Shown one piece after another: positions 19,396 through 40,000 of a stretch of DNA of 40,000 bases. The notes beneath the pieces are model-generated. The model searched no databases. It saw only the letters and a list, made by a program, of their open reading frames with translations, and was not told where the DNA came from. A program made the translations under genes and the position numbers. How positions within the stretch are numbered: position 1 is the stretch's first letter; each line of letters opens with the position of its first letter. The stretch comes from Desulfatiglandales bacterium (GTDB taxonomy: Bacteria; Desulfobacterota; DSM-4660; Desulfatiglandales; HGW-15): contig CAXXJJ010000001.1 of NCBI GenBank assembly GCA_963667015.2, positions 2,148,000-2,187,999 of the forward strand. Direction: 5' to 3'.

Positions 19396-19453
19396 CTTTT
19401 AAAGACCAATTTGGCAAGATAGTAAGCACGTCGTGTTGAATTTATTGTTATGA
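19396..19453 (-). other. truncated attC (distal end of cassette array)
   Basis: Matches only the right half (+ strand) of the long attC family seen at 39444-39571 (cttttaaagacc...gttgaatttattGTTATGA). The half carrying the YYAACG core is absent. Confidence 0.6.
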
Positions 19454-19457
19454 AAAA

Positions 19458-19724
19458 TTACTTGCCAGTTACCATATAGTAAATGAAGAATAAAACAAAA
19501 CCGATTAAAAATAATATAGAAGTTGTACCACACCATTTTTTGAATGGACCATTTTCTTTTAAAGTAAAATAATAATAGGTTGTTGTTATAGGTCCGAATA
19601 GTAAAATTAAAACACCTTTGATGATACTGCTTTTGAATCCATGAAACAAAGCTAACAATGCAGCGATTAACCATGCTGCACTGAATGCTGTAGCAACTAT
19701 TTTAATAATTTCCATATAAATCAC
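19458..19724 (-). CDS. cassette ORF: small membrane protein
   Basis: 88 aa with three hydrophobic helices. The alternative overlapping ORF 19399..19674 runs through the attC and is less likely. Confidence 0.5.
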   Translation of the reverse strand: MIYMEIIKIVATAFSAAWLIAALLALFHGFKSSIIKGVLILLFGPITTTYYYFTLKENGPFKKWCGTTSILFLIGFVLFFIYYMVTGK

Positions 19725-19746
19725 TATCTCCCTTTAATTCGATTTC

Positions 19747-19811
19747 ATAACGCGCTGCATAAGCGGTTTGGCAAGTTTTTCGCCAAATCCGACTTGATGC
19801 TGATGTTAGCG
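19747..19811 (-). other. attC site (short family A)
   Basis: ATAACG cgctgcataagcggtttggcaag/tttttcgccaaatccg... GTTAGCG. Imperfect palindrome. The right core overlaps the TAA stop of ORF 19806..20354. Confidence 0.75.
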
Positions 19812-20354
19812 ATTTATTGATTTTAGATAATTACATAAATTGTTTGCTGTAATTATATATTGTTCGGTACTTGTATTTGATATTTCTATTTCTGATGCAT
19901 GAACTGCGTCATTTCTAAGTGCACGAAGGTCATGCAATAAAACTGCTATGGGGCCACTTATGATTTCTGCTTTTCGAAACTGGTCTATAAACCTTTTTAT
20001 ATTTCCCTGCTTTATATCTTGTAGATTCATTCGTTTTGCGGCTTCTTTTAATTCATATTCCACTGAACGCCATGCTTCCATTATAGCCGCACGGGGTGAT
20101 ATATCTGCTATTTCCCTTAAAGCAGTAATAGGAACTATAGTGTGCTCGATAAGCTTTTCAGATTCTAAAGGCAAGATGGCTTCAGCGCGTTTTTCCAATT
20201 CTCCGAACTCTAAGTTTAAGTCCTTATATTGGAATTTTTTAATTTGGGGTAGTAATTTCCCTAAAGGTTTTCTCAGGATTATTACCGCAATTATTACAGT
20301 TAATGGCCACGCTAAGTTTCCTATAAGGCTAGATATAAATGTGAGCCAGTCCAT
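19806..20354 (-). CDS. cassette ORF: N-terminal TM helix + HEPN/DUF4145-like domain
   Basis: 182 aa. Hydrophobic N-terminus WPLTVIIAVIIL. C-terminal LRALRNDAVH fits the HEPN Rx4-6H motif. Confidence 0.65.
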   Translation of the reverse strand: MDWLTFISSLIGNLAWPLTVIIAVIILRKPLGKLLPQIKKFQYKDLNLEFGELEKRAEAILPLESEKLIEHTIVPITALREIADISPRAAIMEAWRSVEYELKEAAKRMNLQDIKQGNIKRFIDQFRKAEIISGPIAVLLHDLRALRNDAVHASEIEISNTSTEQYIITANNLCNYLKSINR

Positions 20355-20373
20355 ATTCCCTCTTCTATTTAAT

Positions 20374-20500
20374 CGCTAACGATTAACTAACGAGCACGCG
20401 GTGCGCACCACTATAATATATTTATAAGAATGAATGCCGATAACCTTTAATGGCTGATTCGGCGAGATAGTAGCGCGTCACGTTGAGTGCCATGTTAGCT
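20374..20500 (-). other. attC site (long family B relative)
   Basis: CTAACG attaactaacgagcacgcggtgcgcacc ... ggcgagatagtagcgcgtcacgttgagtgccat GTTAGCT. About 127 bp, with complementary arms. Confidence 0.7.
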
Positions 20501-21114
20501 CATATAACTTTTGATTTTATTATACCTTTGCTTTTCAAATATTTCCTCTCGAATCGCTTTAGCAACTGTGACAATGTTGATATATTTTTCGAATGGGCTA
20601 AAATCAATGGCGACTTTAGCTCTATAATTAAAGGTGGATCATTTTTGCCTTCAAATATTTTTATCAGATCTTCCATAGATGTTATGGATTCGATTAACTC
20701 GGCATCACTGTCTTTAAAATGTGCTAAACGATTACGCAATTCTATGGATCTCTTAATTTCTGGCAACAATTCTTGATACTTGGTTTTTAAAGTTTCAACA
20801 CTAAGACTGAAAATAAGCCTTAATTTATCTAAAAGAGAAGCTCGTTTTAAAAGCTCCCAGGTTATTTTCCCATACTCGTTATCATGGGATTCATTTTTGA
20901 CTACTTCTCTGAGAATACGATTGGTAAGTGCTTCAATATAGAAAATACCAAAAATGAAAATATTTATACCTGCTTTTAAATTTTCTGGAGACCTTGATAT
21001 TGAGCGACGTGCATTAGAAAATATCTGGCTATAAAAATTATCTAATCTCGCATTTTCAAATAGACTTGTGATTTGCCCATTTTCAAAACCCAGTTTTAAA
21101 GTTCCATCACGCAT
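20500..21114 (-). CDS. cassette ORF: HEPN-like protein
   Basis: 204 aa, all-helical character. IELRNRLAHF fits the Rx4-6H HEPN motif. Confidence 0.65.
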   Translation of the reverse strand: MRDGTLKLGFENGQITSLFENARLDNFYSQIFSNARRSISRSPENLKAGINIFIFGIFYIEALTNRILREVVKNESHDNEYGKITWELLKRASLLDKLRLIFSLSVETLKTKYQELLPEIKRSIELRNRLAHFKDSDAELIESITSMEDLIKIFEGKNDPPLIIELKSPLILAHSKNISTLSQLLKRFERKYLKSKGIIKSKVI

Positions 21115-21141
21115 AGTATACCTACTGATACCTTATAAAAG

Positions 21142-21275
21142 AGCTAACGAAAAGCATTACAGGCCGTGCGGTGCACACCAACTTACCTTTTTAAAGGTGC
21201 GATGATACTGAGTTGGCAGATAGTTTAAAAAAGGCGAAAAAAATAGCACGGTCCTTGTAGATGCAATGGTTGGCT
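21142..21275 (-). other. attC site (family B), belongs to ORF-less cassette copy A
   Basis: CTAACG aaaagcattacaggccgtgcggtgcacacc ... agcacggtccttgtagatgcaat GGTTGGC. Confidence 0.75.
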
Positions 21276-21540
21276 GCCGCCAACCTGTTTATTTTGTTTT
21301 TGACTGCTTACTTTCAATTACTGTTTTTTAAAGATTTGATGCTTTTTGAATACTATGTTTTTTGATTCTTCTTTTTATATTGTTCTGAATTATTTTTCAA
21401 AGGAATTTCCGGGGAATGGATTTCCTTTGTTTTTTGTTACCTTTTTATTTCCAGATCAATTCTCGCGCCCTTGAGTTACATGTTATTAATAACTGCCTTT
21501 CTACTGCCACGATATTTTGTTTTTATCATTTCCCAGCACG
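21276..21540 (-). repeat. ORF-less cassette body, copy A
   Basis: T-rich on +. No ORF of 60 aa or more on either strand. Near-identical to 24708-24979 and 35861-36124 for most of its length. Confidence 0.8.
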
Positions 21541-21668
21541 CCAACGTTTGCGATAAGGAGTTGGCGGGTTAATGGTGCCGATGGTCGATAAAGTATGAAG
21601 ACCATTGATGCTACTGAATTTCAATCGGCAAGAAAAACCAGCCAATCACCTTGATTGCAGGGTTAGAA
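21539..21668 (-). other. attC site (family E)
   Basis: CCAACG tttgcgataaggagttggcgggttaatggtgccgatggtcgataaagtatgaag... GGTTAGA. Same family as 38119-38240. Confidence 0.7.
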
Positions 21669-21714
21669 AGTTTTGGGTCTGTGTCTTGATAAAATATTAC
21701 CAAAACGCTTTTTA

Positions 21715-21945
21715 TTAATGTTTGTAGATAAAAAACATGAAAAACAAAATAAAGCTAATAAAAATTTCCATTAAACCAAAAATGATAAAGTTAATTCCGT
21801 GATTGCGATTTGTACCAGAAGTATGAATATGCCAAAATTGAAAACGCTCAGGCTCTTCTTTATACTTTTTCCATCCGGCACAAATTAAATATATGCCAGC
21901 TAAAAAACAAATTAAGACTATTGATATGAATAACACATATTTCAT
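21715..21945 (-). CDS. cassette ORF: small two-TM membrane protein
   Basis: 76 aa with hydrophobic N- and C-terminal helices. One ORF per cassette unit. Confidence 0.5.
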   Translation of the reverse strand: MKYVLFISIVLICFLAGIYLICAGWKKYKEEPERFQFWHIHTSGTNRNHGINFIIFGLMEIFISFILFFMFFIYKH

Positions 21946-21955
21946 ATTTGTGACT

Positions 21956-22022
21956 TTCTAACGCGCTGCATAAGCGGATTGGCAAGCTTTTCGCCAATTC
22001 CGACTTAATGCTGATGTTAGTG
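21956..22022 (-). other. attC site (family A)
   Basis: CTAACG cgctgcataagcggattggcaagcttttcgccaattccg... GTTAGTG. Near-identical to 19747-19811. Overlaps the TAA of ORF 22017..22604. Confidence 0.8.
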
Positions 22023-22604
22023 ATTAATAATTTCGATACATTCAAATGGATGAGTTATTGCAATTAGATGTCCACCATTTTTTATTTTATTACAATTACT
22101 AGGACAGAATATTACTCTGTCTTTTTCTCCATGCACTCTTTTTATAATAGATGAATCACCATTGAACCCTTGCCAATTTTTTATTGCATGACACATAGCT
22201 CTTATAAAATCGGTATCAGATAGACTGAACATCTCTAATACCTCATTATGATATTTGCCTGCAATGGCTTGAATAAGCTTTAATGGTGTTACATCACTAA
22301 GAGGGGTTAATAACCGGAGTAATGGATTTACCTCCGATTTTGAAATAGCACTACCGAATAAATACACTTTTTTTAATTTAAGTTTATTTGCTATTTCTAA
22401 CGCAACCATGCCTCCAAGTGAAGAACCAGCAATAACGTCAGTATGAGATATTAAATTTTCATTAATGACTTTTTCTGCAACTTCAGCAAGACTTTTTTCA
22501 CCCTGATACTTTGGCCAATCCAAATATTTCATATTTGGCAAATCAAGCCATGGACCAGAATACATATTTGAATTTGCACCCATTCCGGGAAGTGTATATA
22601 TCAT
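22017..22604 (-). CDS. cassette ORF: alpha/beta hydrolase
   Basis: 195 aa. Nucleophile elbow GSSLGGMVA (GxSxG) and a late His (GGHL). Confidence 0.7.
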   Translation of the reverse strand: MIYTLPGMGANSNMYSGPWLDLPNMKYLDWPKYQGEKSLAEVAEKVINENLISHTDVIAGSSLGGMVALEIANKLKLKKVYLFGSAISKSEVNPLLRLLTPLSDVTPLKLIQAIAGKYHNEVLEMFSLSDTDFIRAMCHAIKNWQGFNGDSSIIKRVHGEKDRVIFCPSNCNKIKNGGHLIAITHPFECIEIINH

Positions 22605-22614
22605 TGTCTTTGAT

Positions 22615-22699
22615 CACTAACGGCCAGCTTACCAGCCCCGCCGTGATTTCCGCAACTAGCAAGGAACCCTCCGGGGTCTGGTAGAGCGACATGTTAAGT
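22615..22699 (-). other. attC site (family C)
   Basis: CTAACG gccagcttaccagccccgccgtgatttcc...ggaaccctccggggtctggtagagcgacat GTTAAGT. Confidence 0.8.
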
Positions 22700-23101
22700 G
22701 TTTACTTGTGCACCATCCCACATTGATAATAATCGGTTTGATTCAGTTTTTGGCATTTTCCCTATTCCATGAAGATACCACACTATAAATGTACCGAATA
22801 ATTTAAGTGCATCCAATGCTGTACCATTTATAGAAATATTATTTTTTGCAGATATTTCATAACAAATATTTACTGGGTTGGCTCGTTCGTTTACTGGTTC
22901 ACGTGGAGCCTTTGAGTATATATTAAAAGGTAAATTTGCTCCATTTGCAGCATATAAAATTGGTCCGATTGATTCAATTTGCATGATTGATAGTTCAATG
23001 GATATATTAATTTCATCAATTGCAGTTGTGACAACATTCACGCCAGGTAACATTTTCAACACAGTACTTAATTCTTTAATTGTATTCTGTATATTATCCA
23101 T
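22694..23101 (-). CDS. cassette ORF: hypothetical protein
   Basis: 135 aa. Stop lies within the attC core. No family recognised. Confidence 0.55.
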   Translation of the reverse strand: MDNIQNTIKELSTVLKMLPGVNVVTTAIDEINISIELSIMQIESIGPILYAANGANLPFNIYSKAPREPVNERANPVNICYEISAKNNISINGTALDALKLFGTFIVWYLHGIGKMPKTESNRLLSMWDGAQVNT

Positions 23102-23120
23102 ATGGTAACTTTATTGGGAC

Positions 23121-23205
23121 ACTTAACGACTAGCTTACCAGCCCCGCCGTGATTTCAACAACAAGCAAGGAACCCTCCGGGGTCTGGTAGAGCGACAGGT
23201 TATGA
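23121..23205 (-). other. attC site (family C)
   Basis: TTAACG actagcttaccagccccgccgtgatttcaac...ggaaccctccggggtctggtagagcgacag GTTATGA. Nearly identical to 22615-22699. Confidence 0.8.
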
Positions 23206-23206: not shown

Positions 23207-23518
23207 TTAATCATCTTTTGATTCATAGGTATATAATTCATCCCATATGATTCCATCACTATTACTTGCTTCTTTGGCTAAAGAATCATATTTACTTTGT
23301 TCCTCTTCGGTATCCCAAGGGACTTCATCATATTCAGATACAAATTCAACTCGAGTTATTTTGAAACCTTCTTCTTCAATTGCATTTTTTATTTTTGGGA
23401 TGGCTTCAAGTACACCTTCGGCCTTGAAGAATAAATATACGAAGCCCCCAATACAATTTTCATACGCTGGTGGATCTAAGATATCAAATTCAACACTTGT
23501 CCAGTATATATTACTCAT
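23207..23518 (-). CDS. cassette ORF: small acidic hypothetical protein
   Basis: 103 aa with no TM segment and an acidic C-terminal half. Confidence 0.55.
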   Translation of the reverse strand: MSNIYWTSVEFDILDPPAYENCIGGFVYLFFKAEGVLEAIPKIKNAIEEEGFKITRVEFVSEYDEVPWDTEEEQSKYDSLAKEASNSDGIIWDELYTYESKDD

Positions 23519-23527: not shown

Positions 23528-23658
23528 TCATAACGTGTGCATTACAAGCCGGGCGGTGCAAACCAACTTACCATATTTAATATACAAAGATTTATAGTTG
23601 GTGGAGATTTTAAAAAAGCGTAAAAAAAGCCCGGTCTTAGTAAATGCAATGGTTCTGC
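23528..23658 (-). other. attC site (family B)
   Basis: ATAACG tgtgcattacaagccgggcggtgcaaaccaacttacc ... agcccggtcttagtaaatgcaat GGTTCTG. Confidence 0.75.
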
Positions 23659-23666: not shown

Positions 23667-24005
23667 TTATAATTTTCTTGAGTATATGTAACTTATAACT
23701 GCTGGCACCAAAACAATCATTGGTGCACATGCAACTAATATTATCCTGAGTTCATTGTTTTTCAAAGGTAGGAAAAATGTTATTACACCAAAAATAATAA
23801 GCGGAACGGACCATATGATAAGTTGTTTTCCGCCGTAGGCATTGATTTTATACCAATTCTCTTCCGACTCAAAAGATTTCTTAAATCGAATCCCAAATAT
23901 TTGATTCATTGAGATACTTTTCTGAACTAAAGGTATGCTAATAATAATCATTAAAATTCCAACGAAAATATTACTGATACCCAAAATGATATTAACCATA
24001 TCCAT
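23667..24005 (-). CDS. cassette ORF: SdpI/YhfL-family membrane protein
   Basis: 112 aa. The block NQIFGIRFKKSFESEENWYKIN between TM helices resembles the SdpI family GIRT...W motif. Confidence 0.6.
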   Translation of the reverse strand: MDMVNIILGISNIFVGILMIIISIPLVQKSISMNQIFGIRFKKSFESEENWYKINAYGGKQLIIWSVPLIIFGVITFFLPLKNNELRIILVACAPMIVLVPAVISYIYSRKL

Positions 24006-24019: not shown

Positions 24020-24085
24020 GCAGAACGCCGAAAATAACCGGCCGGCGAGCTTTTCCGCCGGTCGGCGTTAATTTTATTGTTAAGC
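24020..24085 (-). other. attC site (short family D relative)
   Basis: AGAACG ccgaaaataaccggccggcgagcttttccgccggtcggcgttaattttatt GTTAAGC. Confidence 0.75.
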
Positions 24086-24568
24086 GATGTTGTTTTTAAA
24101 TTCTGTTTCTAAAGTTTTTATACGATCAATTAAATAAGTAAGTACAGTATTACAAAGGAGAAGCATTTTCTCAATTAATGCGTCGATATTGTCATACAAA
24201 TGAGATGATTTCTGGACAATTGGAAATATGTCTTGCTTTGTCCAATAATGCAGTCTTGGATTATATGCCGTTATATCACTATGTGCTATACGTTGATCAC
24301 GCTCAGCTATCAAGGCGTCATGATCAGTGTTCCCATTAGGGTAAATAGATTCTTTCTGCAAAGGCTTAAAATGTTTTTGATAAATCCCTCTGCTTCCAGT
24401 GAAAGGTCTAGCATATTCGATGATACAATATTTTACTAATACCGACTTTAACGTTCCGTCTTTTTCTGACTTGGCACGATCAAGTAAAGTGATAGCATTT
24501 GTAATATCTCCATGTGCTAGCCTCATGCTTACATATTCTTCTTCTATCTGTGATTCCATATTCTCCAT
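24080..24568 (-). CDS. cassette ORF: HEPN-like (AbiU2-like?) protein
   Basis: 162 aa, helical. ERDQRIAHSD fits an Rx4-6H motif. Confidence 0.55.
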   Translation of the reverse strand: MENMESQIEEEYVSMRLAHGDITNAITLLDRAKSEKDGTLKSVLVKYCIIEYARPFTGSRGIYQKHFKPLQKESIYPNGNTDHDALIAERDQRIAHSDITAYNPRLHYWTKQDIFPIVQKSSHLYDNIDALIEKMLLLCNTVLTYLIDRIKTLETEFKNNIA

Positions 24569-24574: not shown

Positions 24575-24707
24575 GCTTAACGAAAAGCATTACAGGCAGT
24601 GCGGTGCACACCAACTTACAATGTTAAAGGTGCGTGGATACTGAATTGCCAGATAGTTTAAAAAAGGCGAAAAAATAGCACGGTCCTTGCAGATGCAATG
24701 GTTGGCT
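24575..24707 (-). other. attC site (family B), belongs to ORF-less cassette copy B
   Basis: TTAACG aaaagcattacaggcagtgcggtgcacacc ... agcacggtccttgcagatgcaat GGTTGGC. Confidence 0.75.
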
Positions 24708-24979
24708 GCCGCCAACCTGTTTAGTTTGTTTTTGACTGCTTACTTTCAATCACTGACTTTTAAAGACTTGATGCTTTTTGAAAACTATGTTTTTTGATTC
24801 TTCTTTTTATATTGTTCTGAATTATTTTTCAAAAAAATTTCCGGGGAATGGATTTCCTTTGTTTTTTGTTACCTTTTTATTTCCAGATCAAGATCAATTC
24901 TCGCGCCCTTGAGTTACATGTTATTGGCAACTTCATTTCCGCTTCCCCTGTAATTATTTTCTTCCTTCTTTCAAGCACG
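24708..24979 (-). repeat. ORF-less cassette body, copy B
   Basis: Aligns by eye with copies A and C. Has a 6-nt gatcaa duplication and GG>AA changes in the hairpin arm. Confidence 0.8.
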
Positions 24980-25035
24980 CCAACGCCCAGTTTAACCGGC
25001 GGGCGTAGCCCGTCCTGTTGAAACTGATGTTAGTG
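24978..25035 (-). other. attC site (very short, family D relative)
   Basis: CCAACG cccagtttaaccggcgggcgtagcccgtcctgttgaaactgat GTTAGTG. About 58 bp. Confidence 0.7.
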
Positions 25036-25383
25036 TGATTTTTCTATTGTATATTCGCTAACTTTGCCCTTTGTGTTGCGAACAACTATTTTGTCAGTGG
25101 ATTTGGATACAAGTGTTAGTTTCTCTGCTTGACCGATACAGAGAATTCCATCTACGATTTCCCAATATATGATATTCGATGTTGCCCAACCTTCCTTTTC
25201 TGAACTCCATGAAATGAGTACATCTCCTTCCATAAATTCATAGGAAGATTGTTTATCACCATCATCTTTACTCATGGTCAAGCCAATAACGTCTTCCGCC
25301 TTCCACTCTATTGATGTAGATTGCCTATTGGTGCAGCATGAAATTGATAGCGTTAAAAATAATGCTATTAATATACGAATCAA
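25030..25383 (-). CDS. cassette ORF: small lipoprotein
   Basis: MIRILIALFLTLSISCC lipobox-like signal. 117 aa. Confidence 0.6.
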   Translation of the reverse strand: MIRILIALFLTLSISCCTNRQSTSIEWKAEDVIGLTMSKDDGDKQSSYEFMEGDVLISWSSEKEGWATSNIIYWEIVDGILCIGQAEKLTLVSKSTDKIVVRNTKGKVSEYTIEKSH

Positions 25384-25409: not shown

Positions 25410-25475
25410 CACTAACGGGTTGATAACCAGCCTGGCGAGCTTTTTGCTAGGTCTGAGTTTATTAAATTGTTGTGC
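25410..25475 (-). other. attC site (short family D relative)
   Basis: CTAACG ggttgataaccagcctggcgagctttttgctaggtctgagtttattaaatt GTTGTGC. Confidence 0.7.
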
Positions 25476-25478: not shown

Positions 25479-26105
25479 CTAGGACAGCCAAACAATGAGT
25501 CTACTAGTGCGAACCCATTTTCCTTTGTCCTTTTTAAGGAGCCAAAAAGTTCCTGACCCCCATTTACCATCTTGAGAATTTTCGATATATACGATTGCTG
25601 CGTTTTTATCAGTATCAAAGCCCACTCGTGACAAACGAAAGTATCCAAGTGCATTTGGGTAATGCTTATAAAAAGAATCCCACCACTTTGTGGGGGAAAA
25701 AGCTTCTTCCCGTTGTTTTTCAGAGATAAGGAAATGTTTGTCTGCAAATTTGAAATAATCGTTTAGAATATATTGATCCTTGTTTTCGCTCACCCAAGAT
25801 TTCAAGGCATATTCTGGAAAAGATGTATTTTCAACCTCGATCTTTTTAAGCAACTCTTCAATTGATATATCCATGTATTTAGGGCCTGAAATTGTTTCAT
25901 TGATAATAATAATTGTCTTAGGAAGAAGTTGTTTTTCTTTTTTATTTATCATGTCTATATAGCCTGGCTGGCTTAGGTATTCAAGCTCGATCACTGCTTT
26001 ATAAACCTGATACTCTAACGGATCTATCTCTTCAGCATTTGCAGAGCAATATGAAATTATCATTAATATGAAAAAAAGCCTGATATTAAAGCGATGTGAT
26101 TTCAT
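25479..26105 (-). CDS. cassette ORF: secreted hypothetical protein
   Basis: Preferred start ATG 26105 (GGGGGA upstream) gives the signal peptide MKSHRFNIRLFFILMIISYCSANA. The track start 26117 (TTG) is less likely. Confidence 0.6.
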   Translation of the reverse strand: MKSHRFNIRLFFILMIISYCSANAEEIDPLEYQVYKAVIELEYLSQPGYIDMINKKEKQLLPKTIIIINETISGPKYMDISIEELLKKIEVENTSFPEYALKSWVSENKDQYILNDYFKFADKHFLISEKQREEAFSPTKWWDSFYKHYPNALGYFRLSRVGFDTDKNAAIVYIENSQDGKWGSGTFWLLKKDKGKWVRTSRLIVWLS

Positions 26106-26124
26106 TTTATCCCCCAAGCACCGG

Positions 26125-28424: not shown

Positions 28425-28553
28425 ATAACGGTGAAGTTAAGGAGCCTGGCGGTTTTATGGCAACTAGCCTCATGCTCCCAAGATACTTGTTAATATTGAT
28501 TTTGCTCCGCTTGGCGATATAGTAGCCAGGTCACCTTGAACTATTGGTTAAGT
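28425..28553 (-). other. attC site (family B relative) immediately upstream (cassette sense) of the sense intron
   Basis: ATAACG gtgaagttaaggagcctggcgg ... ggcgatatagtagccaggtcaccttgaactattg GTTAAGT. The arms ggagcctggc / gccaggtcacc are complementary. Confidence 0.7.
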
Positions 28554-28949
28554 GTTTTTAGATGTTGAATTTACCTCAAGAAGACCGAAACTATTACCGT
28601 CTTCACTTATTCCATGAGCTGTTACAGGAACATCCAAATAGGCAAAATATATTTTACCCAAGTTAGTTTTAGGATGCCTTACAAAAAGATGATAACTAGA
28701 ACCGTTTGGAATATATTTTTCAAGTTTTTCTAGCAGGCTCTCAACATTTATTGTTTTATTTTGTTTATTGGTATCATCATATAGGATGATATTTATTTCT
28801 TCTCCATCTTCATCAATTTCAAGATCCTTGATTGGTAGTTCCATAAAATCATCTTTTAATTTTGGATTTTCTCTAATTACAAAGACATTGTAATCTTTGA
28901 TACCATCTATATTCTTTCGAATCTCATTTATAAGATATGATATTTCCAT
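28548..28949 (-). CDS. cassette ORF: hypothetical protein
   Basis: 133 aa. The TAA stop is inside the attC core. No family recognised. Confidence 0.55.
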   Translation of the reverse strand: MEISYLINEIRKNIDGIKDYNVFVIRENPKLKDDFMELPIKDLEIDEDGEEINIILYDDTNKQNKTINVESLLEKLEKYIPNGSSYHLFVRHPKTNLGKIYFAYLDVPVTAHGISEDGNSFGLLEVNSTSKNT

Positions 28950-28959: not shown

Positions 28960-29047
28960 ACTTAACGTTTTGCTCACCAGCCCCGCCGCGATGCTATGCG
29001 AAAAATGAAAGAGACCCTCCGGGGTCTGGTGTAGCTGTTTGTTATGC
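28960..29047 (-). other. attC site (family C)
   Basis: TTAACG ttttgctcaccagccccgccgcgatgc...gagaccctccggggtctggtgtagctgttt GTTATGC. Confidence 0.8.
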
Positions 29048-29776: not shown

Positions 29777-29841
29777 GCATAACGCCTTGCATAAGCGGTT
29801 TGGCGGCTTTTCGCCAAATCAGCTTGATGCAAATGTTATGC
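29777..29841 (-). other. attC site (family A)
   Basis: ATAACG ccttgcataagcggtttggcggcttttcgccaaatcagc... GTTATGC. Confidence 0.8.
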
Positions 29842-30748: not shown

Positions 30749-30813
30749 GCATAACGGTGCCCTTAACATGCCGGGCGGCGTTTCATCGCCCGGTCATAGT
30801 TGAAGGGCGGGTT
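30749..30813 (-). other. attC site interrupted by two group II introns (remaining 6-7 nt at 35028-35034)
   Basis: ATAACG gtgcccttaacatgccgggcggcgtttcatcgcccggtcatagttgaagggcgGGTT | introns | ATGTCAT. Joining the flanks restores GGTTATG, the right-core form seen at other sites. Confidence 0.75.
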
Positions 30814-32922: not shown

Positions 32923-35027
32923 GTGTGCCGGGCTGGTCCGGCTGCTAAATGGTGATGCGGAGGTATTTTGACACAAATACACTGCAAAGTCCATATCCAG
33001 GCTGACGGAGCCGAAGGATAGTCGAGGGCAAGGGTACTGAAAGGAATATGTGCCTGAAGGAAGCCTAAGACAAAAGCGTGGGTTGACGTACAGGTATGCC
33101 CCGTACCTTAACTGGTAGAGGGCAGGCAGATTAGGCTGGGGGATGTCGGGACGAGTCCGCAACACAGGATAAAGTCCTATATCCGTTACATGGCTGAACC
33201 AAGTATATCTGACAATCGTGCGCTGAAAGTAGCCGAGGCTTACCCCGGGAGGTCCATTGCGTCTCAGAAGATCTATCGCTGTAAGCTACCGGAATATCGG
33301 GAAAACCGGAAAAAAATCCCCGGCATCAAATGACCGGGCGTCCCGGCAAATGATGAGCCTGTCCTGCAGGGCAGGGTAAACAAACAGAGGGCGCAGGCGG
33401 TAGAAACCAATGAGTGATCAAACCGCAAGGGGAGACTATCGCGTAGTGGGAGTCAGCAGAGGGCATAATAGTTCCTGAGTACAGTCGGTACTAAGGAATA
33501 AGGCCCGAACGGTGCCACCTGTCGAATGGCAGGGGTAAATGAGAGAGGTTAATAGGAGACGAGTCTAATGAAATCATGGCGGCAGTGGAAACAACTTGAG
33601 TTGTACTCGATAGATCCCGGCCCAAGGGCTAAAACGGATACGAGTTCCGAAGATTTTATTGCGTCACGTTTATCCGAAAGCCCGACAGGTCAGATCCGGC
33701 TCATGGAGTCAATCTGTGAGCGGAACAACATGAGACGCGCTATCAGGCGGGTCATCAAGAACAAGGGAGCCCCCGGTGTGGACGGCATGACCGTCAGCAA
33801 GATAGTCAGGTATTATCAAAGGCACCGGGACAAGATCGAAAAGGCCCTGCTGGATGGAACATATATGCCCATGCCGGTGTTACAAAAGGAGATTGAAAAA
33901 CCGGACGGCGGAATCCGCCTTCTCGGGATTCCCACAGTACTGGACAGGGTGATTCAGCAGGCAGTGGCTCAGGTATTTACAAGTATCTGGGATTATACCT
34001 TTTCGGAGATGAGCTTTGGCTTCCGCCCAGAACGCTCCCAGCACGGTGCTGTTCGTCAGTACCGAGAGTATCTGAGGGCAGGGTATAAGTATGTGGTTGA
34101 TATTGATATATCCAAATTCTTTGACAGGGTAAATCATGACAGACTAATGAGTCGTCTTGCTACCCGGATAAAGGATAAGAGGGTATTGAAGCTCATCCGC
34201 AGGTTTCTGACATCCGGTGTAATGATTGGAGGTCTTGTAGAGCCAATGAGAGAGGGTACACCTCAAGGCGGCCCACTTTCCCCCTTGCTCAGTAATATTG
34301 TTCTTGATGAACTGGATAAAGAGCTTGAAAAGCGTGGTCTTCGTTTTGTCCGGTATGCTGATGACTGTGTCATATTTGTCAAAAGCAAACCGGCAGCGAA
34401 TCGAGTGATGAGTAGTATAACCCGGTTTATAGAAAAGAAGTTGAGATTAAAGGTGAACCGGGAAAAGAGCGCCATTAGCCTCCCATGGAAAAGTAAGTAT
34501 CTGGGATTCTGCGTAACAAACTCAAGCACGAATCCCAAGATACGTATTCATTGGAAGAGTATCAAGAGGTTTAAGGAGCGGGTAAAGGAAATTACAGCCC
34601 GCAATAGAGGGCGCAGTATTGTGCAGGTGATCAAAGAGCTTAATGATTATATGAGAGGTTGGTGGAACTATTATGGTATTACCGAGTCCTACAACCGAAT
34701 AAAGCTCTTGCCCAGTTGGATCAGGCGACGCCTTCGGGCTGTTATCTGGAAACACTGGAAGAACCGCAGAACCCGTGTAGGTGAACTCCTCAAAAGAGGA
34801 GTTAGAAAAGATGAAGCTGTTACTACCGGATGTGCCCGAAAGGGGCCATGGAGAATGAGCAGAGTTGAATGGGTTCAGTATGCACTACCTAATAAATACT
34901 TTTCATCACTTGGGCTTGTGTTCCCCTGGAACTGATTACTGCCTTGGATCAGCCGAACCGCGTTGTACGGACCCGTATGCTGCGTGGTGTGGGAGGGAGT
35001 AGTCGTGAGGCTACTTCCTATCCCGAT
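32923..35027 (+). mobile_element. group II intron, class C-like, copy 2, directly abutting copy 1
   Basis: GTGTGCC begins at the nucleotide after copy 1 ends (...cccgat|gtgtgcc). It has the same 3' end ...cccgat followed by atgtcat (the attC remainder). Confidence 0.8.
33568..34935 (+). CDS. group II intron reverse transcriptase/maturase (copy 2)
   Basis: 455 aa. Differs from copy 1 at about ten residues, all in the first ~205 aa. Confidence 0.9.
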   Translation: MKSWRQWKQLELYSIDPGPRAKTDTSSEDFIASRLSESPTGQIRLMESICERNNMRRAIRRVIKNKGAPGVDGMTVSKIVRYYQRHRDKIEKALLDGTYMPMPVLQKEIEKPDGGIRLLGIPTVLDRVIQQAVAQVFTSIWDYTFSEMSFGFRPERSQHGAVRQYREYLRAGYKYVVDIDISKFFDRVNHDRLMSRLATRIKDKRVLKLIRRFLTSGVMIGGLVEPMREGTPQGGPLSPLLSNIVLDELDKELEKRGLRFVRYADDCVIFVKSKPAANRVMSSITRFIEKKLRLKVNREKSAISLPWKSKYLGFCVTNSSTNPKIRIHWKSIKRFKERVKEITARNRGRSIVQVIKELNDYMRGWWNYYGITESYNRIKLLPSWIRRRLRAVIWKHWKNRRTRVGELLKRGVRKDEAVTTGCARKGPWRMSRVEWVQYALPNKYFSSLGLVFPWN

Positions 35028-35694
35028 ATGTCATGTCTTTGATTGTAATCATATTTCCATCATGGAATATTACAGTATCTCCAATATAGATAATCTCATT
35101 ATTATCATGAAATATTGCCGAACCATCTGTGATTGAAACGATATCATGCTCAATACCTTTGGAATATTCACTGACTTTTTCGATAAAAGATGTTTCCATA
35201 TTATTAAAGTGTGGTAAAAATTCATAATTGACAATGTTAAGGGCTTGATAATTAGAGTGATCACGTATGACTTGTTCAACTGTCTCTGTTACCAGGCGAA
35301 ATAATGAAACATTTTTTGTAAACTGCATCGATCCACCACTTGCACCCATTATCAAAAGGTCTTCAGCTATTAAATTGAGTAAACGTGACTCTAAACCAGT
35401 TTGAAGAATATTTTCCCTAAAACTTATTGGATTCCCACCTGTTAAATAAATGACATCATATTTATTAAGGTCATCTAATTGCCTTTCATCAAGATCTTCA
35501 TCAATGTCTATAAAATCCAGATTTGTAAAACCAAATGATTTAAAATGCCTTTTAGCTTTAGGAAAACGTTCATGCCCCTCTTTACTAAATGGAGGTATCC
35601 AGGCAATACGAGGATTTGTGCCTTTACTTCTGATGTGTTCTAAAATAATTTCATTTCTTGATAAAGGAAAGTCACTTGTAAGCAATAATTTCAC
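35011..35694 (-). CDS. cassette ORF: peptidase E (S51)-like / class I glutamine amidotransferase-like protein, C-terminus altered by intron insertion
   Basis: ...YDVIYLTGGNPISF... and ...IMGASGGSMQF... resemble S51 dipeptidase E blocks. The last 5 codons (YRDRK*) are read from intron sequence. Without the introns the ORF would end ...KDMT-TAA using the attC core. Confidence 0.65.
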   Translation of the reverse strand: MKLLLTSDFPLSRNEIILEHIRSKGTNPRIAWIPPFSKEGHERFPKAKRHFKSFGFTNLDFIDIDEDLDERQLDDLNKYDVIYLTGGNPISFRENILQTGLESRLLNLIAEDLLIMGASGGSMQFTKNVSLFRLVTETVEQVIRDHSNYQALNIVNYEFLPHFNNMETSFIEKVSEYSKGIEHDIVSITDGSAIFHDNNEIIYIGDTVIFHDGNMITIKDMTYRDRK

Positions 35695-35726
35695 AATTTA
35701 GCTCCAAGAATAGTTACCCTTCAATG

Positions 35727-35860
35727 ACATAACGAAAAGCATTACAGGCCGGGCGGTGCAAACCAACTTACCATGTTAAAGGTACGAGGATTCTGAGTTG
35801 GCAGATAGTTTAAAAAAGGCGAAAAAAATAGCACGGTCCTAGTAGATGCAATGGTTGGCT
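35727..35860 (-). other. attC site (family B), belongs to ORF-less cassette copy C
   Basis: ATAACG aaaagcattacaggccgggcggtgcaaacc ... agcacggtcctagtagatgcaat GGTTGGC. Confidence 0.75.
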
Positions 35861-36124
35861 GCCGCCAACCTGTTTAATTTGATTTTGACTTCTTACTTTC
35901 AATTACTGATTTTTAAAGATTTGATGCTTTTTGAATACTATGATTTTTGATTCTTCTTTTTATATTGTTCTGAATTATTTTTCAAAGGAATTTCCGGGGA
36001 ATGGATTTCCTTTGTTTTGTTACCTTTTTATTTCCAGAACATTTCTCGCGCCTTTGAGTTACTTGTTATTTGCAACTTCATTTCCGCTTCTCCTGTAATT
36101 ATTTTCTTTCTGCTTTCCAGCACG
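35861..36124 (-). repeat. ORF-less cassette body, copy C
   Basis: Aligns with copies A and B, with scattered substitutions and small indels (for example gttttttgtt > gttttgtt). Confidence 0.8.
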
Positions 36125-36254
36125 CCAACGCCCCAAATAACCAGACGGGCGGTTAATGATTATTGATACTTGCAAACATCAATTGCTTCTATGATGCACC
36201 CAACTGCGATCTGGCAAGAGAGTAGCCCGGTCTGAGTTGATTTGGATGTTAGCA
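36123..36254 (-). other. attC site (long family D)
   Basis: CCAACG ccccaaataaccagacgggcgg ... gcgatctggcaagagagtagcccggtctgagttgatttggat GTTAGCA. Confidence 0.75.
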
Positions 36255-36680
36255 GTCTCCAAGTTCCACTATGCCAGGACTAAAGCAACCTACCATGAAT
36301 CCCAAGTATGGATCATTGCCTTTTTCATTAATAACCCAATGCCAATCAACTATCTCGGTGTTTGTAGGGAAACTAAGTTGCACATTATTTTCGAAAGTTA
36401 AAATTAACGTTGAATCTTTTGATAGTGAGAGCTCATTTATTTTTTTCCTTAAGGTACAGCATGAAATAAATGATTTTGCCATATCAGTTTTATCGACAGC
36501 CTCTTCAGAAGGTTGGTATTCTGAGAGTACTTTATTATTTAGGAACTCTTCATCAGGTGAATTTACGTTTTGTGAAATTAACCAAAAGCCATCAAAGTAA
36601 TAATCGAATGTATCACCGATGCTGAATCGAGTATAGTAATTACCAATAAGTTTTTTCTTTAATATATCTATTTCGTTCAT
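36249..36680 (-). CDS. cassette ORF: hypothetical protein
   Basis: 143 aa. Stop lies in the attC core. No family recognised. Confidence 0.55.
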   Translation of the reverse strand: MNEIDILKKKLIGNYYTRFSIGDTFDYYFDGFWLISQNVNSPDEEFLNNKVLSEYQPSEEAVDKTDMAKSFISCCTLRKKINELSLSKDSTLILTFENNVQLSFPTNTEIVDWHWVINEKGNDPYLGFMVGCFSPGIVELGDC

Positions 36681-36694
36681 ATCATTTCATGCAC

Positions 36695-36826
36695 TGCTAA
36701 CGCCGAAATAACCAGCCGCGGCGGTTTATTGTTATAAATAGTTGCCAACCTCAATTGTTTCTATGTTGCTCTCAACTCCGATCTGGCAAGAGAGTAGCCC
36801 GGTCTGAGTTGATTTTGTGGTTGTGC
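36695..36826 (-). other. attC site (long family D)
   Basis: CTAACG ccgaaataaccagccgcggcgg ... ccgatctggcaagagagtagcccggtctgagttgattttgtg GTTGTGC. Confidence 0.8.
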
Positions 36827-37290
36827 TATTCTTTGTTTTCATTAACTTCAATTGTAACCCAGTTCGACTCTAAGCTACCATTAAATAAACCTTTATCTAA
36901 CCATGATCTATTTTTATATTTTGCTTTCACTCGATATTGCCCTGCTTTTAAACAATACATTGAAATTATATTATTATGCAGATAGTCTACACCAATATAC
37001 TCACCAGGGTCTAATGCGATAACATCTCTTTCAGTTAGACGACCTACAGTAACCATTGCACAGAGAGGAAATTCTATACCCTCTTTATTAACTACAATTA
37101 AATCAACTTCAGCCAATTCAATGGTAGTACCTAAAGAAAATCTTTTATTTACTAATACCCTTCCATAAGATTCATTTTTTAAAGATAATTTTAGATTATT
37201 ATTATGGTTTTCTAGCATAAGTTTAATTGGTTCTTCTGCAAATACACCATTAGATAGAAGCAAAATAAGAACAATAAAATATTTAATCAT
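36826..37290 (-). CDS. cassette ORF: secreted hypothetical protein
   Basis: Signal peptide MIKYFIVLILLLSNGVFA. 154 aa. Confidence 0.6.
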   Translation of the reverse strand: MIKYFIVLILLLSNGVFAEEPIKLMLENHNNNLKLSLKNESYGRVLVNKRFSLGTTIELAEVDLIVVNKEGIEFPLCAMVTVGRLTERDVIALDPGEYIGVDYLHNNIISMYCLKAGQYRVKAKYKNRSWLDKGLFNGSLESNWVTIEVNENKE

Positions 37291-37328
37291 TTAAGCCTCC
37301 AAATGGGACACAACTATCAATTCTTGAA

Positions 37329-37461
37329 GCACAACGACCGCCGATAACCTGCCGGGCGGTTTAGTATTATAGATATTTGCCAACCCCAATTGTTACAATA
37401 ATGAACTCAACTGCGATCTGGCAAGAGAGCAGCCCGGTCTGAGTTTATTGGTTTGTTAGCT
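37329..37461 (-). other. attC site (long family D)
   Basis: ACAACG accgccgataacctgccgggcgg ... gcgatctggcaagagagcagcccggtctgagtttattggttt GTTAGCT. Confidence 0.8.
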
Positions 37462-38103
37462 GAGTCTTTTGAGATTTATGTAACTTGTTTCAAATCCCGT
37501 ATCAAATTCTATTGCTGAGACAGAACCTACAGGTTTTTCAAATTCTAAAAATCTGCCACCATCAATAATAAACTGTGCCGCTTCATTCGGGTCCTGTGCA
37601 TTAAAGCCTATGCCACTAAAATCGGTTGATATTTTATTCGTTTCGTATGTTGATACAAACTTATATTCACCAGGGATTAAATTAAAAACTTCAACTTCAA
37701 TGCCATCAATTCGGATTATTCCTAAAGCAAGATTTTTTGATGTTTTACTAACAACGGCGGCTATTCTTGGTGTTGAATAATCGTCATGCTCGTAATCCAT
37801 GCCAAATAAAACAGAGGTTAGCGAGTCTCTAATAGACATGCCAGATTCTAATTTATCAAATATAGGATCGGTATGAGTTCCGTTTCCAACTACGGCGAAC
37901 TTTGAATTGTGACGCAGGCAATTGTAACTGATGTATGGACTTTTATAGATATCCGTTTCTGATCCCGGTGATGGTATAACAGCTAAAGCACCATTAATGT
38001 CTTTGATCACTCTGTTCGGAAAGGACCGAGATGATACACGATACATTAAACATAAACGATTTGAGGTTGTTAATCCAACAGATACAATTCTTCCTACGTA
38101 CAT
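37456..38103 (-). CDS. cassette ORF: IMP cyclohydrolase (archaeal PurO)-like protein
   Basis: N-terminus MYVGRIVSVG...YRVSSRSFPNR matches the signature opening of the PurO / IMP_cyclohyd family as I recall it. 215 aa is the right size. Confidence 0.65.
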   Translation of the reverse strand: MYVGRIVSVGLTTSNRLCLMYRVSSRSFPNRVIKDINGALAVIPSPGSETDIYKSPYISYNCLRHNSKFAVVGNGTHTDPIFDKLESGMSIRDSLTSVLFGMDYEHDDYSTPRIAAVVSKTSKNLALGIIRIDGIEVEVFNLIPGEYKFVSTYETNKISTDFSGIGFNAQDPNEAAQFIIDGGRFLEFEKPVGSVSAIEFDTGFETSYINLKRLS

Positions 38104-38118
38104 TTCATCTCCTCATAC

Positions 38119-38240
38119 AGCTAACGCACAGCATAAGGGGTAATGGTACCGATGGTTTATAAAGTATGAAGCCCATTGAAACCTCTGAACTCCAACCGGC
38201 AAGAAAAACCAGCAAATCCGGCTTGATGCAAATGTTAGAG
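38119..38240 (-). other. attC site (family E)
   Basis: CTAACG cacagcataaggggtaatggtaccgatggtttataaagtatgaag...ccggcaagaaaaaccagcaaatcc... GTTAGAG. Confidence 0.75.
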
Positions 38241-38246
38241 CTTTTT

Positions 38247-38756
38247 TTATTTCCATCGATAGGGAAAACCTAGCCCACCTATGTAATAATGTTCAGATAT
38301 TTGACTACCCTCTGAAACTGAATTATAAAACTTTTTTGAACAATTCAAAGTTACTATTTCAGATGTTTTATTATCCCGAACTTCTATGTGGTAGCTCCAG
38401 CGTCTCCCTTTGCTGATCCATTTACTTTCAATTGGACCTTCATATACTATTTCTTCTCCATTGCCTGTAAAAGCATTAATTGCCATTACGTATGGCCAAG
38501 TCATCAATAGAGTTAAAGCATAAAATAAAATGGCTACAAACCATGTAGTAACCTTTTTTTTGTTAACACTATATAAAAATTTGCGGTTTATCCATGTATA
38601 CCCGAAAATAATTACTGCAAGAGGCACAAATAAGATTCGTACAGAATAGTCAAATCCGCCATTAAAAATTGATTCAAGCCTCAACAATAAAAATAACGAA
38701 ATGCCGATGTATATAAAAAATAAAATGTTACCGTAACGATAAATTAAATCATTCAT
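38247..38756 (-). CDS. cassette ORF: membrane protein with soluble C-terminal domain
   Basis: 169 aa. Three or four hydrophobic helices followed by a ~70-aa hydrophilic tail. Confidence 0.55.
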   Translation of the reverse strand: MNDLIYRYGNILFFIYIGISLFLLLRLESIFNGGFDYSVRILFVPLAVIIFGYTWINRKFLYSVNKKKVTTWFVAILFYALTLLMTWPYVMAINAFTGNGEEIVYEGPIESKWISKGRRWSYHIEVRDNKTSEIVTLNCSKKFYNSVSEGSQISEHYYIGGLGFPYRWK

Positions 38757-38758
38757 AG

Positions 38759-38825
38759 CTCTAACGTACCGCTCACCAGAGAGGGCCGCTCTTTGGCCCG
38801 AATCTGGTGAAGCGGAAGGTTATGC
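38759..38825 (-). other. attC site (short family C relative)
   Basis: CTAACG taccgctcaccagagagggccgctctttggcccgaatctggtgaagcggaag GTTATGC. Confidence 0.75.
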
Positions 38826-39419
38826 TTGCCTTTGTTCATAGTTTTCTGGGAACATCGCTCTTTCAACCAATTCTATAAGTAAGTGAACCACTTTGATATG
38901 GAGTTCTTGGACACGATCTGCATACTCACCAGCTGGAGTGCATATTTCAATATCCGCAATTTCACCTAAAGGCGATCCGTTGCGCCCCGTGAGACCAATG
39001 ACTTTTATATCATTTTTCTTTGCATACTCAGCTGCTAAAATGACATTGCGGCTGGTTCCACTCGTGCTGATTGCTAAAAGGACATCCCCCTTCTTTGCAT
39101 GAGCTTCAAGATATCTTGAAAATATTTTGCTGTAGCCATAATCATTACCGACACAACTAATATGTCCTGAGTCACTTATAGCAGATGCAGGCAGTGCCTT
39201 TCGATCAAGCCTGTAACGCCCTGAAAGCTCTTCGGCAAAGTGTATTGCATCACACATAGATCCACCATTTCCACAGCTAAATGCTCGTCCTCCGTTAGAA
39301 AAACATTCTACAAGAGCCTTCCCTGCATTTGATACAGCCGAAATTGCCTTTTTATTTTTTAAGAATGAATCTAAGGCGGTCGCTGCATCACGAAGAGTTT
39401 TTTTGACTATATTTTCCAT
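38820..39419 (-). CDS. gmhA: cassette ORF: SIS-domain D-sedoheptulose-7-phosphate isomerase
   Basis: 199 aa. ...FSCGNGGSMCDAIHFAEEL..., ...LLAISTSGTSRNV... and ...QELHIKVVHLL... are the GmhA/phosphoheptose isomerase blocks. Confidence 0.85.
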   Translation of the reverse strand: MENIVKKTLRDAATALDSFLKNKKAISAVSNAGKALVECFSNGGRAFSCGNGGSMCDAIHFAEELSGRYRLDRKALPASAISDSGHISCVGNDYGYSKIFSRYLEAHAKKGDVLLAISTSGTSRNVILAAEYAKKNDIKVIGLTGRNGSPLGEIADIEICTPAGEYADRVQELHIKVVHLLIELVERAMFPENYEQRQA

Positions 39420-39443
39420 CGGTAACCTGTAAAAACATTAAGA

Positions 39444-39571
39444 GCATAACGCGCTGCATTACAGGCATGCGGTGCATACCTTTAAAGCTTATTAGTAGAA
39501 GTAATATCGCGAACCTTTAAAGACCGATTCGGCGATATAATAGCATGTCCTTGTAGATGCTGATGTTAGCA
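39444..39571 (-). other. attC site (family B)
   Basis: ATAACG cgctgcattacaggcatgcggtgcatacc ... cggcgatataatagcatgtccttgtagatgctgat GTTAGCA. Confidence 0.75.
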
Positions 39572-39838
39572 TTGTTTTTGTATCATATTTAATATTTTGT
39601 CAGTAGCTTCAGTCAGGTCCATATCATATAATTCTAAACAATCATCTTCGTCAATTATTATATTGAAAGCTTCCTCAATGTCATTAAATGGTGGCGTATC
39701 TTCAATGATGTCAGGAAGATTTGTTGTTGACCACATACATGCCATTTGCTTTGATTTTGGAGGGCTCTTATAACGCTTTTTATATTTCATAAATATTTGG
39801 GAAAGCTTTTCATAGATTTCATTTTTTGAAAAAGTCAT
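39566..39838 (-). CDS. cassette ORF: small acidic hypothetical protein
   Basis: 90 aa. Stop lies in the attC core. Confidence 0.5.
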   Translation of the reverse strand: MTFSKNEIYEKLSQIFMKYKKRYKSPPKSKQMACMWSTTNLPDIIEDTPPFNDIEEAFNIIIDEDDCLELYDMDLTEATDKILNMIQKQC

Positions 39839-39862
39839 ACCCTATTTTCTTTCTTATGGAGA

Positions 39863-39950
39863 TGCTAACGGCCAGCTCACAAGCCACGCCGAGATGCTCA
39901 GCAAAAATTGAAAGAAGCCCCTCGTGGTCTTGTGAAGCGACAGGTTAAAA
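39863..39950 (-). other. attC site (family C variant); a further cassette continues past the window end
   Basis: CTAACG gccagctcacaagccacgccgagatgc...gaagcccctcgtggtcttgtgaagcgacag GTTAAAA. Confidence 0.7.
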
Positions 39951-40000
39951 GCCGATTTTGCCTGCTATTTACCGACTTTGTATTTTTGATAACCAGTTAT

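Follow-up and report, generated by a model that had tools for sequence, protein, structure and literature searches.

Integron-type arrays of gene cassettes are already well known, and several described systems can be set beside the one that we consider here, which fills the right half of a 40,000-nt stretch of DNA (the window) from a Desulfatiglandales bacterium (GenBank assembly GCA_963667015.2, contig CAXXJJ010000001.1, positions 2,148,000 to 2,187,999 of the forward strand). Large sedentary integrons are reported to have homogeneous attC recombination sites (PMC4889954), and a cluster of attC sites lacking an integron integrase (CALIN) in Halorhodospira has an IS200/605 element directly after its last attC (PMC7923331). 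Group IIC-attC introns target the bottom strand of attC and point the other way from the cassettes (PMC3001079, PMC7923331), UHB.I2 is a group IIB1 intron that Sonbol and Siam 2021 (PMC7923331) described beside an attC from a hypersaline metagenome, and cassettes that carry no open reading frame (ORF) can act as promoters (Blanco et al. 2024, PMC11014356; Tansirichaiya et al. 2019, PMC6557892). We are very confident that the region from 19.4 to 40 kb of the window is an integron-type gene-cassette array of at least 20.6 kb and at least 24 cassettes, which runs off the window's right end, and this array probably lies in the chromosome. What it adds to the known ones is strand-specific intron homing, gene-less cassettes and a 4.9-kb gap between neighbouring attC sites, and it provides a well-documented long array from poorly studied anaerobic lineages, with a content that is almost entirely without assigned function.

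Like the sedentary integron arrays and CALIN surveyed by Cury et al. 2016 (PMC4889954), the array consists of co-oriented cassettes, mostly single ORFs of unassigned function, and it has in common with them canonical R and L boxes with extrahelical bases, great length, a chromosomal look and a lack of resistance genes. Beyond about 19.4 kb the long ORFs are nearly all on the minus strand, as direct reading of the ORF listing makes plain, and the 21 ORF cassettes and three gene-less cassettes all share one strand. Delimited on the + strand as AAC..GTT palindromes, the attC sites of 19392–40000 comprise 24 that are complete and one that is truncated, each following a minus-strand ORF toward lower coordinates, with the bottom (recombinogenic) strand being the + strand at every one of them. 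The 24 sites measure 50–126 nt from AAC to GTT, or 58–134 nt with their 7-nt cores, and fall into three length classes (AAC..GTT of 50–61, 77–80 and 114–126 nt). Their + strand boundaries are YYAAC(G) on the left and GTTRRRY-like on the right; measured against the core pattern RYYYAAC...GTTRRRY, AAC and GTT are present in 24 of 24, and the flanking bases are mostly consensus. The GC fraction is 0.47 in the attC sites, 0.34 in the cassette bodies and 0.43 in the left 19 kb. A preliminary description of this stretch, made from the letters alone, had counted 25 palindromes of 58–135 bp bounded by YYAACG and GTTRRRY, GC-rich between AT-rich bodies, and had read them as the attC sites of integron cassettes, and all of this stands. 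It had also placed the stop codon of most units in the right core, which is true of a slim majority only (12 of the 21 ORFs end in a GTTA-derived TAA), and had given each unit one short ORF, which describes the 21 ORF cassettes but misses three gene-less ones and a fourth that starts at 39951.

The identity of the sites is borne out by covariance models that work in both directions. Rfam holds no attC family, and control models were therefore built for this analysis, from reference sites read out of class 1 arrays that were located with an IntI1 sequence, for which at least 5000 plasmids gave matches of 99% identity or above. Model R1 comprises nine class 1 integron attC sites with the textbook pairing of R and L boxes, these being the consistent ones among 11 known sites, since a MAFFT alignment of all 11 misaligned the 5' arms. 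With the whole window scanned and filters off, R1 matches 12 window sites at E<1 (in four cases at E<0.002), all at full length, on the + strand and at coordinates that had been delimited by eye; at the same threshold it has zero matches in 1–19395 and zero on the minus strand of the window. On held-out true attC sites R1 proved narrow, giving just 18 bits to arr-3 and missing estX and dfrA5, so that window scores of 12–28 bits fall within the range of divergent genuine sites. Model R2, in turn, was built from the 12 window sites matched by R1 and from no others, and it recovers 18 of the 18 attC sites known from seven class 1 arrays of resistance plasmids, on the right strand, including those that R1 missed or barely found (estX at E=7e-4, arr-3 at E=0.003 and dfrA5 at E=0.05), with almost no off-target matches in 97 kb. 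Within the window R2 finds 23 of the 24 sites, and the left half yields just one partial match, at E=7. Scanning for AAC..GTT hairpins by folding energy was dropped in favour of these models: a strict threshold left one site per strand, and a relaxed one of -8 kcal/mol was too noisy for counting, since it placed 15 'sites' in the left half.

The folds point the same way. When each 5' arm is aligned to the reverse complement of its own 3' arm, for the 24 window sites and the 11 known ones, an extra base stands on the 3' arm of the + strand 9 nt 5' of GTT in 18 of 24 window sites, and at position 8 in five more (23 of 24 in total), the base at position 9 being G in 16 of the 24. On the + strand 66 internal extra bases fall in the 3' arm, as against 11 in the 5' arm, with the mirror image on the minus strand, and the known class 1 sites behave alike, 8 of 11 having an extra base at position 9 and none having one on the top strand. 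This asymmetry of the arms is the signature of an attC bottom strand, in agreement with the minus-strand cassette ORFs. In the L-box stem, 89.9% of alignment cells pair, as against 27–37% when the partners are slid; 61 cells have changed on both sides, in 8 of 15 pairs, and none of 500 shuffles reaches the observed score. Two of the checks that the preliminary description had proposed, namely scoring by an attC covariance model, which it had named beforehand as able to refute it, and folding of the bottom strands, both came out in its favour, the first through the 12 matches of the class 1-trained model at E<1 and the second through paired R and L boxes and extrahelical bases that occupy the canonical position on the arm where an attC has them.

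On this anatomy, cassette recombination at the attC sites is predicted. Each unit would be a mobile cassette, as a rule a single minus-strand ORF that lacks a promoter and has its attC behind it, and the + strand of attC, when single-stranded, would fold so that the R box (AAC/GTT), an unpaired spacer, the L box and a variable terminal structure succeed one another, with the extrahelical bases on the '' arm of the L box. This hairpin would be the binding site of an integron integrase, which would cut it at AA/C, whereupon the cassette could be excised as a circle and reinserted at the attachment site attI. Transcription would presumably start from the cassette promoter Pc, beyond base 40000, or from internal promoters.

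Relatives were sought with the pattern of the type C attC, which led to 15 stretches in five metagenome-assembled genomes (MAGs) and, with further metagenome contigs, to 22 related loci in all (L numbers below denote loci outside the window). The MAGs are labelled as Desulfatiglandales, Desulfobacteraceae, two as delta-proteobacterial and one as Zixibacteria, and all 15 of their stretches are co-oriented attC arrays that have in common with the window attC families, gene-less cassettes, one ORF cassette and both of the intron lineages described below, which points to a host of Desulfobacterota type without proving it. The truncated attC, for example, is 82–88% identical over 57–60 nt to the 3' halves of attC sites of about 126 nt in L018, L020 and L021, and attC 10 is 88.9% identical over 126 nt to an attC in L022.

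Several points do weigh against an integron array. The attC sites are less alike than those of large sedentary integrons, forming 11 clusters at 70% identity, with a mean pairwise identity of 0.51 and the three length classes noted above, so that of the 'sedentary-type' label in the preliminary description the size and the chromosomal-looking flank fit but the sites do not. R1 is narrow and misses the long type C and the type D sites, attC 20 (37329–37461) is unmatched by both models, and the covariation alignments were fitted to the model's own structure, which biases them toward pairing. The integrase, attI and Pc are not visible in the window, another difference from the sedentary arrays of Cury et al., so that the defining integron platform is putative. 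As had been stated at the outset, a tblastn search with IntI1 (E up to 10) finds no IntI in the window, and the orientation logic is sound too: minus-strand cassettes put any intI, attI and Pc beyond base 40000, and the window ends inside the array.

This last point leaves room for the reading that survives best beside a complete integron, and we regard it as a real possibility, if somewhat short of an even chance: the array would be a CALIN, split from its platform or left behind after platform loss, with any mobilisation provided in trans by an IntI from another place in the genome or from the community, and intI would then not lie just beyond base 40000. Neither the window nor the 22 related loci (five MAGs and metagenome contigs, about 158 kb) contain an IntI-like sequence, the recombinases that do occur in those loci being Xer-like trios or IS91-linked genes; these loci are only 1–17 kb each, however, and had little chance of covering an intI end, just as the window itself stops within the array. 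Elements that could rearrange the locus (introns, IS200-like and IS91-like elements, recombinase trios) are abundant, one related MAG has such arrays on five different contigs, and the heterogeneity of the attC sites would suit a CALIN, a class that is intermediate between mobile and sedentary integrons (PMC4889954). Against this stands the size of the array, since just 6.6% of the CALIN in complete genomes exceed 10 attC sites (PMC4889954) and there are at least 24 here. By the CALIN definition, at least two attC sites and no integrase within 4 kb on each side, the number of sites is ample and the left side is clear.

The array might also be the cargo of a mobile element, that is, a plasmid- or transposon-borne mobile integron and not a chromosomal array of the sedentary type, which we consider very unlikely. 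Mobile integrons do have heterogeneous attC sites like these, cassettes are common to other genomes at 85–99% identity, and mobile elements abound in and around the array; but at least 24 cassettes is far past what is typical of mobile integrons, the array has no resistance genes, the left 19 kb consists of metabolic and transport genes of an ordinary kind and has none for transfer or replication, and relatives sit on Mb-scale contigs. To the notion that repetitive extragenic palindromes (REPs), the mosaic elements built of them (BIMEs) or terminator-like repeats downstream of convergently packed small genes merely look like an array we give almost no credence: imperfect, GC-rich palindromes that follow ORFs, a gene resembling that of a REP-associated transposase at the region's edge and the fact that group IIC introns target terminator hairpins too (PMC3001079, PMC7923331) are what one would expect of it, but models of true attC sites match the window sites and vice versa, the cores are AAC/GTT, the extra bases are strand-asymmetric and at the canonical distance from the core, the sites, at 50–126 nt in three classes, far exceed REPs (20–40 nt) in both length and variety, all sites are co-oriented with none among the ordinary genes of the left 19 kb, the relatives have them in co-oriented clusters only, and the repeats that flank the transposase-like gene differ in sequence.

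Table 1. Coordinates of the features of the cassette array and its edge. Positions are those of the window unless a locus is named; a slash marks an intron insertion point; R1 and R2 are the covariance models described in the text.
Feature	Coordinates	Strand	Remarks
IS200-like element ending the array	18263–19394	-	Y1 (HUH) transposase-like gene 18311–19315, flanked by inverted repeats
Truncated attC	19392–19453	+	R''-proximal half only, ends GTTATGA at 19447–19453; distal end of array
attC 1	19745–19811	+	TCATAAC...GTTAGCG; R2 23 bits
attC 2, long type	20374–20500	+	R1 13.2 bits; R2 matched
attC 3, long type C	21142–21275	+	gene-less cassette copy 1; R2 26.7 bits
attC 4	21539–21668	+	R2 18.7 bits
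attC 5	21956–22022	+	R1 and R2 matched
attC 6	22615–22699	+	R1 22 bits, E=0.0011; R2 62 bits
attC 7	23121–23205	+	R1 23.5 bits, E=0.0004; R2 matched
attC 8, type C	23528–23658	+	R2 15.5 bits
attC 9	24020–24085	+	R1 matched; R2 47 bits
attC 10, type C	24575–24707	+	gene-less cassette copy 2; R2 9.6 bits (weakest)
attC 11	24978–25035	+	shortest (50 nt AAC..GTT); R1 matched; R2 41.8 bits
attC 12	25410–25475	+	R2 20.6 bits
attC 13	28425–28553	+	R' core split by intron A (remaining GC at 26118–26119); R1 21.1 bits, E=0.0018; R2 matched
attC 14	28960–29047	+	R1 matched; R2 54.7 bits
attC 15	29777–29841	+	top R1 score, 27.7 bits, E=2.9e-5
attC 16	30749–30813	+	R'' core GTT/ATGT split by introns B1/B2 (rest at 35028–35031); R2 16 bits
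attC 17, type C	35727–35860	+	gene-less cassette copy 3; R2 14.5 bits
attC 18	36123–36254	+	R2 32 bits
attC 19	36695–36826	+	R2 partial match, 19.9 bits
attC 20	37329–37461	+	sole site unmatched by R1 and R2; 80–94% identical to attC 18 and 19
attC 21	38119–38240	+	R1 matched; R2 31.5 bits
attC 22	38759–38825	+	R1 matched; R2 36.8 bits
attC 23	39444–39571	+	R2 26 bits
attC 24	39863–39950	+	R1 matched; R2 54.4 bits
Intron A	26120–28424	-	2305 nt, 5'-UUGCG...GU-3'; cassette orientation; at GTTAT/GC, R' core of attC 13, top strand
Intron A reverse transcriptase ORF	26244–27758	-	504 aa; RVT_N+RVT_1+GIIM; no endonuclease domain (Pfam, NCBIfam)
Intron A lineage copies	window 26120–28424; L024 555–2845; L032 8890–11194; L033 1113–3417		
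Intron B1 (IIC-attC type)	30814–32922	+	2109 nt, 5'-GUGUG...AU-3'; reverse transcriptase ORF 31463–32830, 455 aa; Rfam RF02001
Intron B2	32923–35027	+	2105 nt; reverse transcriptase ORF 33568–34935, 455 aa; tandem copy
Gene-less cassette body, family 1, copy 1	21276–21538	-	
Gene-less cassette body, family 1, copy 2	24708–24977	-	
Gene-less cassette body, family 1, copy 3	35861–36122	-	
Gene-less family 2, start	39951–40000	-	cut by window end
Cassette ORFs, 21, one per cassette	19458–39838	-	
Cassette ORFs, first seven	19458–19724, 19806–20354, 20500–21114, 21715–21945, 22017–22604, 22694–23101, 23207–23518	-	
Cassette ORFs, next seven	23667–24005, 24080–24568, 25030–25383, 25479–26108, 28548–28949, 29042–29761, 29847–30728	-	
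Cassette ORFs, last seven	35011–35694, 36249–36680, 36826–37290, 37456–38103, 38247–38756, 38820–39419, 39566–39838	-	

Not all of the array is made of cassette ORFs, as the preliminary description would have had it, because 6.5 kb of it belong to three group II introns recognised by Rfam, which that description did not mention, any more than it did the gene-less cassettes or the IS200-like end of the array. Introns B1 and B2 stand head to tail, are 97.6% identical and have intact ORFs for reverse transcriptase (RT), and they lie on the bottom strand of attC 16, opposite to the cassettes and directly after the hairpin, within GTT/ATGT of the R'' core; the junction of B1 reads ...GGGCGGGTT/GUGUG. 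Three related copies in the Desulfatiglandales MAG (two in L012, one in L016) follow the GTT of three other attC sites. As a reference IIC-attC intron we used the one at L011 3629–5650, on the Raoultella plasmid pWLK-NDM, which sits at TTGT/T of the last attC of a class 1 integron whose cassettes include NUDIX and yjjG-like ones. The same Rfam D1–D4 families match the B introns and this intron, and RT identity is 48% between B and L011, 29% between A and B and 30% between A and L011.

B1 and B2 thus fit the IIC-attC lineage as judged by their sequences. In common with the S.ma.I2-lineage introns (Léon et al. 2010, PMC3001079) they have their place in the bottom strand, an opposite orientation, a position after the hairpin, boundaries of the form 5'-GUGYG...AY-3' and an RT that lacks an endonuclease domain. 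They differ in that they insert at TGTT/A, one base further into R'' than the published TTGT/T consensus, in being present as two full head-to-tail copies at one site, and in having uncultured sediment anaerobes as hosts, not Proteobacteria with class 1 integrons. We would suppose that an intron of this type homed twice into the one attC bottom strand, after the GTT of R'', leaving a tandem opposite to the cassettes: the insertion point is downstream of the target (the hairpin and GTT), which is still intact after a first insertion, so that a second homing event gives a tandem, and B1 would then be the later arrival. One consequence touches the neighbouring cassette, in that the ORF at 35011–35694, which without B1 and B2 would end at the core TAA, has its stop at a TAG five codons into the intron.

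A second consequence is practical. The tandem introns push two neighbouring attC sites 4.9 kb apart (30813–35731), farther than the default clustering distance of 4 kb in IntegronFinder (PMC4889954), so that at default settings the program would report two clusters. Intron insertions can therefore stretch attC spacing far enough to split one array into two calls.

Intron A belongs to a different lineage, which would have homed into another attC on the top strand, five bases into R'. It matches Rfam RF02012 and RF00029, has a domain V of 34 nt, and when excised in silico leaves a perfect R' core. The junction GTTRR/UUGCG recurs in four different attC sites, one each in the window, L024, L032 and L033, and in L033 the intron stands in tandem with a diverged second copy. 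These four independent GTTRR/ junctions are, to our knowledge, the first fixed insertion point for this non-IIC lineage. Both strands of the attC core serve as precise homing sites, for two different group II intron lineages, and recognition of an upstream target would let either of them accumulate in tandem. Matched by description, intron A resembles UHB.I2 (PMC7923331) in its 5'-UUGCG...GU-3' ends, its cassette orientation and its position at an attC; what sets its lineage apart from UHB.I2 is the fixed insertion point in the R' core, found at four attC sites, one of them with a tandem pair. An RT protein identical to that of intron A occurs in ENA sample ERZ21831079, and the RT is on record on two contigs of 16–17 kb that are arranged differently.

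Each of the three copies of gene-less cassette family 1 carries a long type C attC, and homologues are found at 68–88% identity in eight genome loci (L012, L015, L017, L018, L019, L020, L021 and L024) and at 75–85% in five of five metagenome contigs (L027–L031). Two terminator-like hairpins lie on the + strand, antisense to the cassettes. No ORF is kept across the copies, a sense-strand frame of 31–36 aa that exists in some being broken in others, and family 1 has no Rfam match, no sigma-70 consensus and no compensatory pairs on either strand. By analogy with gene-less cassettes from Vibrio and an oral metagenome, the family may consist of promoter or regulatory cassettes, and it is the combination of several copies with conservation across genomes that makes these cassettes good candidates for such a role. 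Like the promoter cassettes already described (PMC11014356, PMC6557892), those of family 1 measure about 400 bp with their attC, have no conserved ORF and are interspersed in a long array; they differ in being conserved at 68–88% and present many times over in genomes that are assigned to different phyla, in their antisense terminator-like hairpins and in the lack of a sigma-70 consensus. The promoters of such cassettes are reported not to be predictable in silico (PMC11014356, PMC6557892). More than 12 copies of family 1 are present in the arrays of other genomes, with long invariant stretches, and at the attC junction we note a GGTTGGCTGCCGCCAACC hairpin, to which the antisense strand adds another that is followed by a T-run.

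The start of family 2, at the very end of the window, is 93–97% identical to repeated attC-flanked units of about 240 bp in L021 (two copies), L023 and L024, 95% identical to L028 and 98.6% identical to L032. The two copies in L021 lie at 2293–2525 and 2655–2885, and several internal palindromes are seen in them.

One can go further and imagine a whole family of large attC clusters without a linked canonical IntI, at many loci of uncultured Desulfobacterota-type bacteria and Zixibacteria, in which the main role of the attC cores would be to offer homing sites to two intron lineages, each specific to one strand, the gene-less cassettes would be regulatory or insulating, and movement would depend on a trans integrase or on other machinery, such as intron-mediated cassette formation or Xer-like trios. 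We think this unlikely.

Two recombinases in the related loci had to be considered as integrases and were set aside. The 292-aa recombinase of L021, which sits where intI would, is XerC/XerD-like, with 67 bits in the integron-integrase model against a cut-off of 265 bits and a gap of 33 residues exactly at the additional domain of IntI1, and a 251-aa recombinase of L032 (within 6693–8646) matches only the N-terminal half of IntI profiles. Midway along a related array, the latter adjoins an IS91-type (Y2) transposase. Xer-like tyrosine recombinases are encoded at L021 6813–7691 and L027 415–3058, inside or at the edge of a related array; L027 has three such genes in tandem, the first being of the L021 type, with a gene-less family 1 cassette on their far side. 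Three tandem Xer-like recombinases presumably represent something akin to a 'recombinase in trio' element.

The cassette proteins, said in the preliminary description to be unrelated, are indeed so: 15 of the 21 have no Pfam match, and the remaining ones belong to mutually unrelated families (DUF4145, a weak alpha/beta hydrolase, SdpI, Peptidase_S51, an IMP cyclohydrolase-like protein and SIS). A set of proteins so largely without families is typical of environmental cassettes. One ORF cassette (39454–39872, 90 aa, no Pfam match) is, together with its attC, 87% identical in nucleotides to L025 1757–2185 in the Desulfobacteraceae MAG, and its presence in both is evidence for cassette movement between genomes.

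To the left of the array, the first 19 kb of the window carry ordinary genes, such as those for a tannase, a GH43 protein, MFS transporters, an FAD oxidoreductase and a protein with a metallo-beta-lactamase fold. The distal end of the array lies where the preliminary description had placed it, with the truncated attC beside an IS200-like gene, and a comparable arrangement is that of the Halorhodospira CALIN (PMC7923331), which likewise has such an element after its last attC. The left half of the truncated site is replaced by an inverted repeat of the element, the arms of which span 18263–18307 and 19350–19394; the element, or a deletion beside it, may have halved this last attC. The transposase-like gene matches Pfam Y1_Tnp and, with 61 bits, falls under the 80-bit cut-off of the NCBIfam model for REP-associated tyrosine transposases. 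Its product, of 334 aa, has a long C-terminal extension without a Pfam match, and at the left end of the IS200-like region (18245–19394) there is a 22-nt direct repeat, TGAGAGTTGAGAGGGACGATGT, in two copies.

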